64,000 nucleotides of DNA from Minisyncoccota bacterium (lineage in GTDB: Bacteria; Patescibacteriota; Minisyncoccia; Phycocordibacterales; UBA2100): assembly GCA_018060545.1 (NCBI GenBank), contig JAGOVW010000001.1, positions 61,203 through 125,202 on the forward strand, written 5' to 3'. Below, piece after piece: positions 6,714 through 46,047 of this stretch. Position 1 is the stretch's first letter, and each line of letters starts with the position of its first letter. Under the pieces are notes generated by a model. The model saw only the letters and a program-made list of their open reading frames with translations, was not told the origin of the DNA and searched no databases. The position numbers and the translations under genes are program-made.

Positions 6714-6752
6714 CAAAAAAAATGGGACGTGCACGAATGCACGTCCCAAAAA
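6714..6752 (-). terminator. Intrinsic terminator (minus-strand orientation) for the upstream high-GC ORF. It lies just upstream of the 850-aa ORF start
   Basis: Minus-strand read: gggacgtgca-ttcg-tgcacgtccc followed by TTTTTTTT. A GATAAT -10-like hexamer (revcomp of 6705-6710) lies between the hairpin and the ATG at 6698, which suggests a very short or leaderless 5' UTR. Confidence 0.5.
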
Positions 6753-6842
6753 CATCACCTCGCTTTCGGTTCGACCCACACAGTCGCCTGTGTGGGGCTC
6801 TCAGCAATAGAGAGCGTTAGATTCGAACACCGTATTCAAGGT

Positions 6843-7409
6843 TCAGTCACGCGGAGGATCACCCGCGTTCACTCGCCCATCTTCGTAGAGTTTCGGAAAG
6901 GAGGCGTCGTCGACGACCCAGATGCGGTTCCTCGCGATATTCGTCACGAGGTAGTCGCCAGAGCCGACTTCTAGCGGTCCTTTCTTCGACTCAGACGTGA
7001 CGAAGCGGCACGCCTTCTTGAACTTCCCGAGCACAACAACTGGCGCCGTCTTCTGTGCAAGAACGACATGTGTCTCCGAGCCGTACAGCTCGAAGAGGCG
7101 GTCGCCGCGCGGGTCGTCCCCAACGGCAAGTTCGCGGATCACCCGGAAGTCGACCGTGAATTGGTCGTTCGGGTACTCGTTGATCTTGCCCTCCCCATTG
7201 TCCATCGCCGCAACCTGGTGCCAATGACGGCCGCCGATTGCGTCGAGCTGGCCCCACGGCGCCTTGATGGCAACGGTGCCCAGCGCTTCCGGAACCAAGC
7301 ATGCCGCGATGTTGCCTTGCGGATTGGGGCGAGCCCAACCATGCACGGGCATCATGTAGCGGGCTGAGGGGGGAGTTTCCTTCGAGAAGGTCGGTTTCCA
7401 AAAAAACAT
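6843..7409 (-). CDS. Hypothetical protein in a visibly high-GC segment (candidate horizontally acquired gene)
   Basis: 188-aa ORF with a GGAGAG RBS 5 nt upstream of its ATG. The third codon positions are G/C-rich, unlike its neighbours. No family recognized (…PGDYLVTNIARNRIWVVDDASFPKLYEDGRV…). Confidence 0.5.
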   Translation of the reverse strand: MFFWKPTFSKETPPSARYMMPVHGWARPNPQGNIAACLVPEALGTVAIKAPWGQLDAIGGRHWHQVAAMDNGEGKINEYPNDQFTVDFRVIRELAVGDDPRGDRLFELYGSETHVVLAQKTAPVVVLGKFKKACRFVTSESKKGPLEVGSGDYLVTNIARNRIWVVDDASFPKLYEDGRVNAGDPPRD

Positions 7410-41863: not shown

Positions 41864-42913
41864 CTAGAACGGGTTCACCGCGCCGCGAATTTCGAAGTGC
41901 AGGTGCGGGCCCGTTGAACGCCCCGAGTTTCCAACAGCACCTATCTCTTCACCTTGGGAGACGATTTGTCCGGCGTACGCATCTACCCGAGACATGTGTG
42001 CGTAGAGTGTTTGTGTGCCGTTATCGTGACGGATTACCACATAAGAACCATACCCACCATTGTATCCACCTGAACGGGCAATAATCACCTCGCCGCCAGC
42101 TGATGCCCAGATAGGGGTTCCTACAGGAGCTCCAATATCTACACCGTTATACCCGTGAATGCCTTGAGTCTTGACGCCGTTTACCGGGCGCTGGTAGAAG
42201 CCACTATACGAAGGCACCTTGCCCGACGTACGAACAGCAATCTTCACCCCAGAAGAACTCTTCTTTGTTTCAGGCTTAGGCACAATGAGTTCAGCATCTG
42301 GAACGATGACAACAGTACCCGCCGCCAGGATTTCGTCCGGCTCAATACCATTGTAAAGCGCAGCCTCCTCAAGGTCGCCTCCGTGTTTTTTAACAATGTC
42401 ACGCAAAGACCCGCCACTTTTGACGGTATAACGAATACCGGTAACCGGTAGAATAACGAGCGAATCGCCTGGGCGTATGTCTTTCGTGCTCTTGATGTCG
42501 TTCGCCCACATGATGGTGTTTACCGTCACATCAAACATCGACGCAATAGTAGAAAGGGTATCGCCCTGTCGTACGGTGTACACGCTTATTTGTGAGCTTT
42601 TTATGCTTTCCTGCACCTCGATGGCGGTTCCAAGGGGCCCGTCCTGGGAGACGAGAGCGGAATCGTCAACAATCTCAATGTCGCCACCCCCACGCCCCAC
42701 AGGATTAATGTTCATTACGGGGGTAGGAAGACTCATTACTTGGACGTTGTCTTTCTTGGCGCCACCGATCCCCTGGGCCGTGTTGAGGATTACCGTAGAG
42801 AGGAGTCCCGCAAACACGCTCGCTCGGGCGATTGTAGGAATAAAAGCCCCGGTCAAAAGAACGAGAGAAATCGTTGAAAGCATTGCGGATTTCGCCGCAC
42901 GGTATGTCGTCAT
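41864..42913 (-). CDS. Secreted LysM-domain M23 metallopeptidase (peptidoglycan hydrolase)
   Basis: Signal/TM N-terminus. Two LysM motifs (YTVRQGDTLSTIA; YTVKSGGSLRDIV). M23 motifs (HGYNGVDIGAP..., YAHMS, GNSGRSTGPHLHFEIR). Confidence 0.8.
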   Translation of the reverse strand: MTTYRAAKSAMLSTISLVLLTGAFIPTIARASVFAGLLSTVILNTAQGIGGAKKDNVQVMSLPTPVMNINPVGRGGGDIEIVDDSALVSQDGPLGTAIEVQESIKSSQISVYTVRQGDTLSTIASMFDVTVNTIMWANDIKSTKDIRPGDSLVILPVTGIRYTVKSGGSLRDIVKKHGGDLEEAALYNGIEPDEILAAGTVVIVPDAELIVPKPETKKSSSGVKIAVRTSGKVPSYSGFYQRPVNGVKTQGIHGYNGVDIGAPVGTPIWASAGGEVIIARSGGYNGGYGSYVVIRHDNGTQTLYAHMSRVDAYAGQIVSQGEEIGAVGNSGRSTGPHLHFEIRGAVNPF

Positions 42914-43427
42914 CTGTGAAAGGAATCCTTTTACAGATGAGTCACGTTGGTTTTTTTCTATAAGCGGTTACAGGCAAGTTCTTTGAAAGCTTCCGCCTCT
43001 TTGTCACGAAGAGGCACGGGATTGAACGGCGTCTTGCCTGTGAGGTTGCCAGATGGGGTTCCTATGAACTAACCCCGATCCGACTCAAAAGAGGGTACCA
43101 AAGCAGGTAGAGCGGGTCAACCCTTTTATGACTTCATCTTGATATGCAAAACCCTTTGTTTAAGCCATTTTTTCTCCATAGACCCTTGAAAAGCGTTGAA
43201 AAACAAGGCCAAATGAGAACGTGTGTATAGCCCAAAAAATGGCTTAAAATATAGGGTTGAAAAACTTGCTTTTTGTACCATAAAAAAGCCCGCCACCCTC
43301 GAGCACCATTCCTTGCAGCAGTTTGCGGCGGGGTAGGGCCAGCCTGTAAGGTAGAGAAAAGAGGTCAGCAGTCGTTAATTTTATGTTTTGCGCGACTCTG
43401 CTTCGGGGCATGGCACCCCCATAAAGA

Positions 43428-43452
43428 AAGACGGGGGCCGTTGGCCCCCGTC
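43428..43452. terminator. Terminator hairpin downstream of the high-GC membrane protein gene
   Basis: agacgggggccgttggcccccgtct. Confidence 0.5.
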
Positions 43453-43483
43453 TCAGCATGTCGCAGGAACTGCCGCCTATGGA

Positions 43484-44026
43484 TCAGAAGTTCGATCCCG
43501 AGGCGATGGTGCGCTGCAGCGTGCGCGCGTTGATGACGTTGGCGACACCGGCCTGGACGCAGTTGATGAGCGTCAAGGTCAGAAACTCGGTGTTCGAGAA
43601 GATCTTGGCCAGCGCGTAGCCCTTGATCGTGACGTCAGCCGCACCAAGGACCAACAAGATCACCTGGACCCCGGCCATGAGAATCATGCCGTTGACCTCG
43701 AAGGTGTTGTTGATGCCAGGATGCGAGATCCGCAGCTGCTCGGCGATCGCCATCATGGCAGCCGCCGTGATGAGGAACCAGACCCACGAGAAGCTGTACG
43801 AGCCGACCGAGAAGGCGATGGCGTGCGGGTCCGTCTTCATGTAGTGCCCGTAGACATAGCCGCCGATGTAGAGCAGCAAGATGTAGAAGAACCCCGGCGA
43901 AGCCTTGAAGGTCCTCATCAGGAGCCCCGGTGCGGCACTGCGCTTTGCCGAATCGCGGCCAACAACCGCGGCCCGACGCTGATCGTCATCGTCATGATCA
44001 ACAGCACCAACGTTATGGTCTGCCAT
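43484..44026 (-). CDS. Hypothetical polytopic membrane protein encoded in a visibly high-GC segment (candidate horizontal acquisition)
   Basis: ~4 hydrophobic helices. The N-terminus carries an acidic DHDDDDQRR stretch. Third codon positions are strongly G/C-biased relative to neighbours (by eye). Confidence 0.5.
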   Translation of the reverse strand: MADHNVGAVDHDDDDQRRAAVVGRDSAKRSAAPGLLMRTFKASPGFFYILLLYIGGYVYGHYMKTDPHAIAFSVGSYSFSWVWFLITAAAMMAIAEQLRISHPGINNTFEVNGMILMAGVQVILLVLGAADVTIKGYALAKIFSNTEFLTLTLINCVQAGVANVINARTLQRTIASGSNF

Positions 44027-44091
44027 AGTGCAGTCTCCTTTGTTGCTCTACCCCTCCACAGGAGTAGCCGTAGTGGACTCTACTACATAAA

Positions 44092-46047
44092 ATGAATGTG
44101 TCAACTGCCTGCGAAAGTGCATGCTACACTCCTTTCGTGAAGTACCTTGAAGGCCTGAATAGCGAGCAAAAGAAGGCAGCCATGCACACCAATGGGCCGC
44201 TCCTTATACTCGCAGGAGCAGGTGCTGGCAAAACCAAAACCATCACACACCGCATTGCGCACCTCATTGCATCAGGTGTCCCTGGGGATGCCATTCTCGC
44301 CGTTACCTTCACCAACAAAGCAGCGGGGGAGATGAAAGAGCGCGTTGCCCATCTATTAAAAGAGCTTCCTCCAGCACAGGGATACCCCACCGTTGCCACT
44401 TTTCACGCGCTGTGCGTGCGAATTCTGCGCGAGCACGCAGCTCACTTGCAGTTGCCTCGCTCATTTACGATTTGGGACCGTGATGACCAAATGAAAGCGG
44501 TAAAGGAAGCTTTGAAAGCGCTCGACATAGGGGACCAATACGAGCCACGTACCATACTCAGTCGCATTTCGCGCTCAAAGGGTGACAGCTACACACAGGA
44601 AGAGTTTGCACGCACGGCAAATAACCCATTTACCGATATCGTAGCCAAAGTGTGGCTACGCTACGAAGAAGCACTGCGCCGTGACCATGCTGTTGACTTT
44701 GATGACCTTTTATTGAAAACCATGCTCTTGTTGCAGGGCAACACGCAGGTACGTGAACGCCTGCAAGCACGCTGGACACACATTATTATCGACGAGTACC
44801 AGGACACCAACAAAGTACAGTTCGAAATTGCTCGCCTATTGGTAGGTGAGCGACACAATATATGCGTCGTGGGTGATGTGGACCAAAATATCTACAGCTG
44901 GCGCGGGGCAGACATCCAGCACCTCCTCTCATTTGAAAAGGTGTTCCCTGGGGCCACGGTGATTATGCTTGAACAGAACTACCGCTCTACACAAACCATT
45001 CTTGCTGCCGCTAATGATGTGATTAAGAAGAACCGAAATCGTTATGAGAAAAATCTCTTTACAGAAAATGGGGAGGGGGAGAGTATCGCACTCTACAGCG
45101 GATGGAGTGAGCAAGAGGAAGCTCGCCACATAGCCCAGACGGCATCAGCACTGATCATAGACGGCACCCCCGCAAGCGAAATAGCAGTGCTCTATAGAGC
45201 AAACTTCCAGTCACGCGCATTAGAACAGGCATTTCTCGAGCAAGGTGTGCCTCACCGCGTCCTCGGCACGCGCTTTTTTGAACGAAAAGAAGTAAAGGAC
45301 CTTCTCAGCTATCTGCGTGCAGGTCTTAATCCAGAGAGTCGTGTTGATATCTCGAGAATCATCGCCTCACCGCCGCGCGGTATTGGCAAGGGAACACTTA
45401 CCTACATGCTTGAAGGCACACTCGATGAACTCCCTTCCGGAGCGCGCAAAAAAGTAGAAGCTTTTTACCAGCTGCTGCGCGACATCAATAAAACCGCACA
45501 AGAGCGGCCTGTATCGGAAGTAGTTAAATTTATTATTGAGAAGAGTGGACTCGGTGCTCACCACAGCAAGGGGACCGAGGAGGATTTGGAGCGGTTGGGC
45601 AACATGAAAGAGTTGGCATCACTCGCGACCAAGTACGACACACTAGCTGCACCACAAGGAGCAGAGCAACTTTTGGAGGACGCAGCACTCTTGGGCGAAC
45701 AGGACAATGTGAACAAGAATATCGACGCTGTCTCACTTATGACAGTTCACGCATCCAAAGGGCTCGAGTTTGATATGGTGTTCATTTCCGGACTCGAGGA
45801 GGGACTTTTCCCCATGGAGCGAAAAGGGGAATCTGACGATTCGGAAGAGGAGCGCCGTCTTTTCTATGTGGCCCTCACACGTGCTCGCAAAAAAGTACTT
45901 CTTTCTTATGCAGGCACACGCATGGTGTACGGTTCCCGTGACATCTCTACACCATCTCAATTTTTGGGAGACATCAGCCCAGAGCACATTGCGCATGTGG
46001 CACCGAGTCTTTTGGAGCGCTGGGGCGGAGAGGATGTTATCCGATAG
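44092..46047 (+). CDS. pcrA: UvrD/PcrA-family ATP-dependent DNA helicase
   Basis: Walker A (AGAGAGKTKT), DEYQDTN, and helicase motifs IV-VI (VHASKGLEFD, RRLFYVALTRAR). Confidence 0.85.
   Translation: MNVSTACESACYTPFVKYLEGLNSEQKKAAMHTNGPLLILAGAGAGKTKTITHRIAHLIASGVPGDAILAVTFTNKAAGEMKERVAHLLKELPPAQGYPTVATFHALCVRILREHAAHLQLPRSFTIWDRDDQMKAVKEALKALDIGDQYEPRTILSRISRSKGDSYTQEEFARTANNPFTDIVAKVWLRYEEALRRDHAVDFDDLLLKTMLLLQGNTQVRERLQARWTHIIIDEYQDTNKVQFEIARLLVGERHNICVVGDVDQNIYSWRGADIQHLLSFEKVFPGATVIMLEQNYRSTQTILAAANDVIKKNRNRYEKNLFTENGEGESIALYSGWSEQEEARHIAQTASALIIDGTPASEIAVLYRANFQSRALEQAFLEQGVPHRVLGTRFFERKEVKDLLSYLRAGLNPESRVDISRIIASPPRGIGKGTLTYMLEGTLDELPSGARKKVEAFYQLLRDINKTAQERPVSEVVKFIIEKSGLGAHHSKGTEEDLERLGNMKELASLATKYDTLAAPQGAEQLLEDAALLGEQDNVNKNIDAVSLMTVHASKGLEFDMVFISGLEEGLFPMERKGESDDSEEERRLFYVALTRARKKVLLSYAGTRMVYGSRDISTPSQFLGDISPEHIAHVAPSLLERWGGEDVIR

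Follow-up and report, generated by a model that had tools for sequence, protein, structure and literature searches.

A foreign islet at a hot spot is an already known kind of genetic element, and a single foreign hypothetical gene is in itself ordinary. Genomic islets, or regions of genome plasticity, combine atypical composition with a slot that is present, absent or refilled between the same core genes, and with an allele history that conflicts with that of the flanks, exchange apparently proceeding via the conserved flanks themselves. An integron gene cassette is exchanged whole: a promoterless-looking single open reading frame (ORF), standing behind a resident promoter and closed by a hairpin. 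Features of both kinds recur at the locus described here, which lies in a 64-kb stretch of DNA (the window) from a metagenome-assembled genome (MAG) of the Paceibacteria (Parcubacteria, within the candidate phyla radiation, CPR), a host with a G+C content (GC) of about 50%. Between uvrD and the gene for a LysM-M23 peptidase, the minus strand of the window encodes a small membrane protein (MBP9668779.1, the target). The gene is probably a functional, horizontally acquired cassette that occupies a variable slot between these neighbors and moves between lineages. The insertion is not private to this genome, being one allele of a cassette that Paceibacteria lineages exchange.

The gene and its variable slot

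The original prediction described a high-GC gene for a 180-aa polytopic membrane protein among neighbors of the local composition of about 50% GC, and both parts of that description are borne out. The ORF at 43484..44026 is present on the minus strand with an ATG start, and its GC is 0.600 (0.55, 0.42 and 0.83 at the first, second and third codon positions, GC1 to GC3). The flanking genes are ordinary (M23 GC 0.528, GC3 0.54; uvrD GC 0.513, GC3 0.53). The GC3 check that had been proposed makes the target a 6-8 standard deviation (sd) outlier among the ORFs of the window. Against the 46 other long ORFs, with a second GC-rich gene (island 1) left out, GC3 averages 0.514 +/- 0.041 and the target stands at z = 7.8; once island 1 is counted, z = 6.1. 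The other long ORFs range from 0.44 to 0.63, the sole exception being island 1 at 0.74. When 543-bp windows are drawn across the 64 kb (mean GC 0.506, sd 0.030), 0.5% are as GC-rich as the target, and values of at least 0.585 are reached in two places only, at starts 6716-7072 and 43267-43548. Within the gene, GC3 per 15-codon block is 0.33 and 0.60 over the first 30 codons and 0.80-1.00 thereafter. The composition is atypical for the host, as in horizontally acquired islets. An antisense ORF (43388..44095, plus strand, 235 aa) was considered and set aside as a by-product of the GC3-rich gene (its GC1 is 0.78).

The gene is framed by predicted expression signals and by boundaries that come from comparison with relatives. 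The 64-kb stretch represents the window lineage (WIN in the trees below), and the compared loci and contigs carry L-numbers (L001, L005 and so on).

44077..44104, minus strand: sigma-70-like promoter, TTGACA-16 nt-TAGAGT (promoter scan, 10 of 12 matches)
44027..44076, minus strand: 5' untranslated region (UTR) with a stem-loop and a ribosome-binding site, AAGGAG, 8 nt before the ATG (sequence reading)
43484..44026, minus strand: coding sequence of the four-helix membrane protein, GC3 0.83
43428..43454, minus strand: intrinsic terminator with a perfect 11-12-bp GC-rich stem, a 3-nt loop and a T-rich tail (terminator scan and inverted repeat I4)
43288..43427, minus strand: unconstrained spacer of about 120 nt ending in a second terminator-like hairpin, 43288-43304 (lineage comparison)
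43462..44052, no strand: recently exchanged block, comprising the 5' UTR, the coding sequence and about 20 nt past the stop (identity with L001, stand-alone contigs)
43285..44058, no strand: replaceable cassette (comparison with the close relative L066)

The cassette promoter aligns upstream of differing cargo genes in L005, L066, L067 and L071 and lies outside the exchanged block, the homology between the window and L066 reaching only to about 44058 on this side. By blastn, the two share homology solely at 44058-44160 and 42913-43285. The stem-loop of the 5' UTR (about 44047-44070) reads CGGCTACTCC TGT GGAGGGGTAG, and equivalent hairpins with other stem sequences are present in L005, L066, L067, L069 and L071. 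The terminator hairpin is identical in L005 and recurs 3' of the cargo in L066, L067, L069 and L071 as the same structure in another sequence. The spacer is present in the window, L001 and L005 lineages only.

The loci of relatives were fetched through the M23 peptidase, whose own relatives are from Kaiserbacteria and Parcubacteria; a scan of Joint Genome Institute (JGI) metagenomes with the M23 N-terminus gave no matches. The interval between uvrD and the M23 gene proves to be a variable slot that is empty, holds a member of the same protein family or holds other cargo, depending on the lineage. In the following, the percentage after each locus is the identity of its M23 peptidase to that of the window.

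L072 (57%): slot empty, uvrD and the M23 gene 217 bp apart
L066 (95%): a 172-aa gene with four transmembrane segments (4-TM), GC3 0.77, unrelated to the target
L071 (65%): three genes with GC3 0.81, 0.63 and 0.73, none a family member
L005 (95%): family member 60% identical to the target, GC3 0.75
L069 (80%): family member 36% identical, GC3 0.80
L067 (75%): family member 43% identical, GC3 0.84

The identities of family members are taken over aligned residues; BLASTP local alignments give 56% for L005 and 35% for L069. The empty slot is on a JGI contig whose M23 peptidase is assigned by NCBI to Candidatus Kaiserbacteria. Wherever the slot is occupied, the cargo stands behind the same conserved promoter and 5'-UTR hairpin and ends in a GC-rich terminator hairpin, the sequence of which varies between lineages. 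The L066 cargo finds only itself among 5.8 billion clusters, with no homologue. It was considered, together with the L071 cargo, as a diverged form of the target family, and both were rejected at probabilities below 1% from hidden Markov model (HMM) comparison and hhalign. The slot genes of L071 (2517-4590) encode a 166-aa protein with a signal-peptide-like N-terminus, a 262-aa protein and a 175-aa 4-TM protein. As a side observation, the public gene calls at L067 4059-4649 and L068 1501-2007 are on the wrong strand (GC1 0.79-0.83), and the real gene is a 157-aa family member on the opposite strand with GC3 0.84; the wrong calls stem from the same antisense artefact of a GC3-rich gene. The distribution in the host lineage is patchy and the nearest kin of the protein lie in distant taxa, which is the pattern of an islet.

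Recent movement of the cassette is seen when alleles and flanks are compared. The flanking genes of the window lineage, L001, L005 and L066 are 93-98% identical in protein, with synonymous sites near random (proportion of synonymous differences, pS, 0.65-0.76), and the closest pair by flanks is L001 and L005 (pS 0.50). The L001 allele of the target is just 60% identical to that of L005, its closest relative. Between the window and L001, 30 of the 543 nucleotides of the target differ (about 95% DNA identity), with pS 0.22, a synonymous rate (dS) of 0.25, a nonsynonymous rate (dN) of 0.005 and dN/dS of 0.02, whereas the flanking uvrD and M23 genes of the same pair have pS 0.69-0.76 (saturated) at 94-96% amino-acid identity. 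The target differs between L001 and L005 at pS 0.52, so constraint on synonymous sites is an unlikely cause of the low divergence between the window and L001. In a sliding comparison of this pair, identity is high from about 43461 to 44060 (0.88-0.98), against 0.68-0.90 in the flanking genes, where most values are 0.75-0.85, and 0.52-0.57 in the spacer at 43286-43400.

The allele tree ((WIN,L001),L005) conflicts with the flank tree ((L001,L005),WIN), an incongruence also characteristic of islets. This conflict indicates that the cassette was exchanged between the lineages, or reached both from the same source, long after they split. In addition, four SPAdes contigs of 579-591 bp (L075-L078), from separate ENA assemblies, match the window at 100% identity and cover just 43462/43464 to 44041/44052, and further contigs start or stop at the same edges. 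Breaks at the edges of the cassette are expected where an identical segment is present in more than one background within a sample. Assemblies of different samples in NCBI, ENA and Logan agree on the context of the cassette.

A rare family of four-helix membrane proteins

Hydropathy and an AlphaFold model agree on four transmembrane helices in the target protein. The model (predicted local distance difference test score, pLDDT, 75.7; predicted template modeling score, pTM, 0.60) places helices at residues 45-63, 81-100, 108-129 and 146-179, with a short beta-hairpin between the first two. No curated family in Pfam, NCBIfam, PHROG or PADLOC scores above threshold. The best Pfam scores are below cut-off, at 14 bits for DUF3093 (cut-off 23) and 13.5 bits for ECF-ribofla_trS (cut-off 26.7), and there is no match in the PDB by sequence or by fold.

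The protein belongs to an unnamed, well-conserved family of about 150 aa. A word-based search with the target gave 147 matches, none with a Pfam domain, and E-values against family members run from 1e-23 to 1e-49. The family (alignment A2) is defined by the motifs AEQ...PG(I/V)(D/N)NTxE, NTEF and NA(R/A)TL(R/M)RTI together with four transmembrane helices. The window protein aligns over its full length, folds in the model into four helices and carries the conserved motifs, in the forms AEQxxVSHPG(I/V)(D/N)NTxE, FxNTEF and INARTL(R/Q)RTI. An alignment of a 42-sequence sample has 22 invariant positions, E96, Q97, G104, N107, T108, E110, N166, T169 and R172 among them, all of which the window protein keeps. 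The family is rare, an exhaustive HMM search returning 192 clusters at 50% identity among 1.84 billion representatives.

Homologues extend beyond the host lineage. When each species was represented by one genome, 55 family loci were found, nearly all in Alphaproteobacteria (Bradyrhizobium, Brevundimonas, Hyphomonas, Rhizomicrobium, Hyphomicrobiaceae) and a few in Planctomycetota, Hydrogenedentota and Terriglobia. The same search gave two weak matches in other Patescibacteria. The alphaproteobacterial carriers have DNA of 58-69% GC, and the GC3 of their family genes (0.62-0.95) is their native composition. The codon usage of the target had been called actinobacterial in style; the style is just that of high-GC DNA, and the family indicates alphaproteobacterial-type donors, not Actinobacteria. 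Isolates that carry the family include Bradyrhizobium sp. RDT10, Brevundimonas basaltis DSM 25335 and Rhizomicrobium electricum DSM 21034.

Elsewhere in the CPR, a Saccharibacteria MAG (L057, 5400-8200) encodes a distant family member (28% identity, GC3 0.81) within a block of about 2.7 kb and 54-59% GC inside DNA of about 39-46% GC. Three further ORFs of the block have no Pfam match. This block represents a further, separate entry of GC-rich DNA into the CPR, in another lineage.

Conserved polar residues cluster at the ends of the helices, with AEQ after helix 2, PG(I/V)(D/N)NTxE before helix 3 and NTEF before helix 4, and the protein has a basic amphipathic tail at its end, NARTLRRTI. Helices 3 and 4 (residues 104-125 and 144-166) both begin with NT-E and have a conserved Q about 12-13 residues on. 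This pattern suggests an internal repeat or duplication and a polar site within the membrane. An oligomeric component that handles ions or solutes or is associated with the envelope might be guessed from the two repeated polar motifs, though such a role is doubtful. Across 56 family loci, no conserved gene neighborhood or operon partner was found. A cluster of LAB_N, GT2 and PMT_2 genes (about nine loci) and a gene for an SbmA/BacA-like ATP-binding cassette (ABC) protein (11 loci) were considered as functional context, and both are best explained by synteny among related genomes. Literature searches returned no description of the locus or the family. The model and the comparisons indicate that the product is a small four-helix inner-membrane protein under strong purifying selection. 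The gene appears to be a working one, given its dN/dS of 0.02 and its intact predicted expression signals.

Proposed import and exchange, and rival explanations

The proposed history begins with import. The codon composition of the target (GC3 0.83) fits donors of 60-65% GC, not the Paceibacteria host of about 50% GC, and from this and the distribution of the family we infer that the original transfer ran into the CPR. The slot has a resident promoter at one edge and a strongly conserved stretch of non-coding DNA at the other. Lineages of the clade hold differing GC3-rich cargo in it, or none, and the cassette also passes between lineages. The most likely route of exchange is DNA uptake followed by homologous recombination via the conserved flanks. 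Homologous recombination would be the simplest route because the non-coding DNA of both flanks (the promoter region on one side, the terminator with a 160-bp AT-rich block on the other) is conserved to an unusual degree. The horizontal acquisition put forward in the original prediction is supported by the GC3 outlier, by homologues outside the host lineage and by relatives in which the locus is empty or otherwise filled.

Several observations weigh against this account. For one, the signatures of mobility that mark islets (integrase or transposase, tRNA target, direct repeats) were not found. The original prediction had suggested that direct repeats or integrase remnants might bound the cassette; no flanking direct or inverted repeats are conserved across lineages, and no integrase or transposase was found among the Pfam-annotated neighbors in relatives (KsgA, UvrD, M23 and phosphoribosyl pyrophosphate (PRPP) synthetase, which stand beside several ORFs without a Pfam match) or in the three neighboring ORFs scanned in the window itself. 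There is no tRNA near the cassette, and the four that the window has all lie over 20 kb from it. No plasmid or phage match was obtained for the window protein (tblastn; phage set of 50,697 records). A 12-nt inverted repeat that flanks the cassette (43375-43386/44085-44096) was considered, but it is not conserved in L001 or in other lineages and is probably due to chance. Neither a family nor a fold nor a conserved operon partner points to a function.

The family tree and the state of the codons also count against it. A weakly resolved neighbor-joining tree unites the four slot alleles in 7 of 100 replicates and puts L067 and L069 on long branches; the L067 allele resembles members outside the CPR (up to 56%) more than it does the window protein. 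The resolution of the tree is too low to decide between one entry and several. The window and L005 do group together, with 98-99% bootstrap support, and a 5-aa insertion unique to these two in the family speaks for a single entry of this pair. They keep a GC3 of 0.75-0.83 despite protein divergence of about 40% and near-random synonymous sites, a level that neutral amelioration at a genomic GC of 50% should have eroded further. Possible reasons are divergence outside these genomes, re-import or a local force such as GC-biased conversion. In addition, no donor was identified, the best identity outside the CPR being about 50-57% for the window protein and 64% for the L005 protein. All slot cargo is GC3-rich, the orphan of L066 included, so enrichment specific to the locus may be conceivable.

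Such enrichment is the strongest form of doubt. If the slot is a recombination hot spot, GC-biased gene conversion, or selection for GC-ending codons in any gene expressed there, could have made the composition on the spot, and the gene may then be an old resident. This would account for the GC3 of 0.63-0.84 in each cargo gene of the slot, the homologue-less orphan and the three unrelated L071 genes among them, and for the high GC3 kept in the window lineage and L005 across large divergence; recombination at the locus is, moreover, demonstrated. However, the non-coding parts of the cassette and its surroundings are not enriched (spacer 0.53, conserved block 0.34, promoter region 0.43), and high-GC Alphaproteobacteria, where the family is widespread, are its native setting. 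Copies in the CPR have been seen only in this slot, in the GC-rich block of the Saccharibacteria MAG, which is a multi-gene block at a different locus, and in one weak match to a Patescibacteria MAG. Identity of 50-64% across phyla for a 150-aa membrane protein needs transfer anyway, and local enrichment in place of import is unlikely.

An immobile cassette, acquired once by the ancestor of the clade and passed on strictly by vertical descent with very fast protein evolution, is in effect refuted for the pair of the window and L001, in which the target has dS 0.25 while the synonymous sites of the flanks are saturated and the allele tree contradicts the flank tree. It would explain why one family, in one orientation and behind one promoter, fills four of the six occupied slots, why the window and L005 are sisters with a unique shared insertion, and why the excess of identical codons over chance in this pair is alike in the target (0.07; 0.55 observed vs 0.48 expected) and in the flanks (0.09-0.12). 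It does not sit well with the completely different gene that L066 holds between intact flanks, with the 7 in 100 bootstraps that unite the slot alleles or with a dN/dS of 0.02 in the recent pair, which is at odds with uniformly fast evolution of the protein; as a general account it is very unlikely. A chimeric assembly or binning error, in which alphaproteobacterial reads were joined into a CPR contig, could produce both foreign composition and contigs that break at the cassette edges. Yet contigs from independent assemblies and samples run through both junctions (L001 from ENA, L073 from NCBI, L074 from Logan and the 186-kb contig of the window), the first 30 codons, 5' UTR and terminator are continuous with host-like sequence, and L005, L067 and L069 have diverged alleles at the very same junctions. 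An artefact of this kind is hardly credible.

If the import and exchange of a functional cassette hold, the locus is a small, clean case in which a reduced CPR genome imported a gene across phyla and CPR lineages then exchanged it, and the slot can be surveyed over thousands of MAGs. To our knowledge, the hosts and gene flow of the Parcubacteria/Paceibacteria are largely unknown. A bolder proposal, and an improbable one, is that the gap between uvrD and the M23 gene is a dedicated integrase-free expression slot with which episymbionts repeatedly capture and swap genes for small membrane or secreted proteins from their high-GC alphaproteobacterial partner cells. A resident promoter and 5' hairpin would form one side of the slot, and a conserved non-coding anchor the other. 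If this were true, the cargo would report the identity of the host and act in interaction with it. The family itself is uncharacterized and the behavior of the slot is moderately interesting. The analysis defines a rare family of four-helix membrane proteins with cultured carriers in Bradyrhizobium, Brevundimonas and Rhizomicrobium, which opens it to genetic study.

Neighboring features and comparison with known systems

The original prediction also had a long non-coding stretch preceding the gene. The stretch is 570 bp long (42914-43483), and because the gene is on the minus strand it lies 3' of the target, downstream of it and upstream of the M23 peptidase gene. In order from the cassette, it comprises the terminator, the spacer, an AT-rich block, a TTGACC site and the M23 leader, and it belongs mostly to the promoter and leader of the M23 gene. 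Two features lie in the part beyond the cassette.

43126..43287, no strand: AT-rich non-coding block, GC 0.34, 85-95% identical between the window, L001, L005 and L066 and outside the cassette
42896..43120, minus strand: promoter-like TTGACC (43115-43120) and structured 5' leader of about 190 nt of the LysM-M23 gene (RNAalifold)

The AT-rich block, conserved although synonymous sites in the neighboring genes have reached saturation, includes a perfect 15-nt inverted repeat (43159-43173/43234-43248) and TTGAAAAAC repeats. A small conserved ORF across it (43126..43296, minus strand, 56 aa) was rejected, because the differences between lineages do not fall at synonymous positions and the conservation is at the nucleotide level.

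The M23 leader is a neighbor of the cassette and no part of it. RNAalifold on seven lineages predicts four helices with 40 pairs, 26 of which show compensatory changes. In all, 86% of cells are paired, against 38-46% in controls with slid partners, and none of 500 shuffles reaches the observed values. In the predicted fold, the last helix (42910-42940) masks the ribosome-binding site and the start codon. Rfam covariance models find only the four tRNAs in the window and nothing better than E 0.7 at 42850-44150. The analysis in this way exposes a covariation-supported leader upstream of a cell-wall hydrolase gene, without an Rfam match, which is a candidate new cis-regulatory RNA for that enzyme.

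On the other side of the cassette, the mechanically called start of uvrD (ATG 44092) would overlap the cassette promoter on the opposite strand. A GTG at 44137 (VKYL..., the observation spanning 44092-44139), where the UvrD proteins of relatives begin, is the more likely start. Island 1 (6843-7409, minus strand), at a distance from the locus, encodes a 188-aa soluble protein (GC 0.607, GC3 0.74) whose cluster at 90% identity holds two members only and which has no match in Pfam, NCBIfam, PHROG or PADLOC. A soluble protein, it has no evident relation to the four-helix target.

The locus departs from each of the known systems that it recalls. In comparison with genomic islets, the unit here is a single gene of about 590-775 bp with neither integrase nor tRNA nor repeats, placed immediately after a conserved resident promoter in the reduced genome of a CPR host. 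The alternative cargo is all GC3-rich and mostly made up of small membrane proteins. The locus differs from integron cassettes in that no IntI integrase was found in the surveyed Pfam-annotated neighborhoods of relatives or in the three window ORFs scanned directly. The terminal hairpins here look like ordinary terminators, with a GC-rich stem and a T-run; on reading them no GTTRRRY/RYYYAAC core sites were seen, no formal attC scan having been made. The slot holds one cassette (three genes in L071) and no array.

Phage morons and other small phage membrane proteins offer a further parallel. An 8.7-kb IMG/VR viral contig (L079) carries a lone family member on the opposite strand (2393-2860), between the large terminase gene (phrog_38, E 7e-94) and phrog_8035. 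This member is 67-68% identical to copies from Xanthobacteraceae and Bradyrhizobium, and the contig implies phage carriage at least once in the family. Unlike morons, the window gene and the 55 genomic loci have no phage genes nearby, and the protein has no PHROG match. There is also a likeness to the unnamed 4-TM family of the Alphaproteobacteria, annotated as hypothetical protein (e.g., ABUS57_01020 and KGJ78_09735), with which the window protein aligns end to end. It is set apart from that family by a longer acidic N-terminal tail, by 4-aa and 5-aa insertions and by its home in a CPR host.

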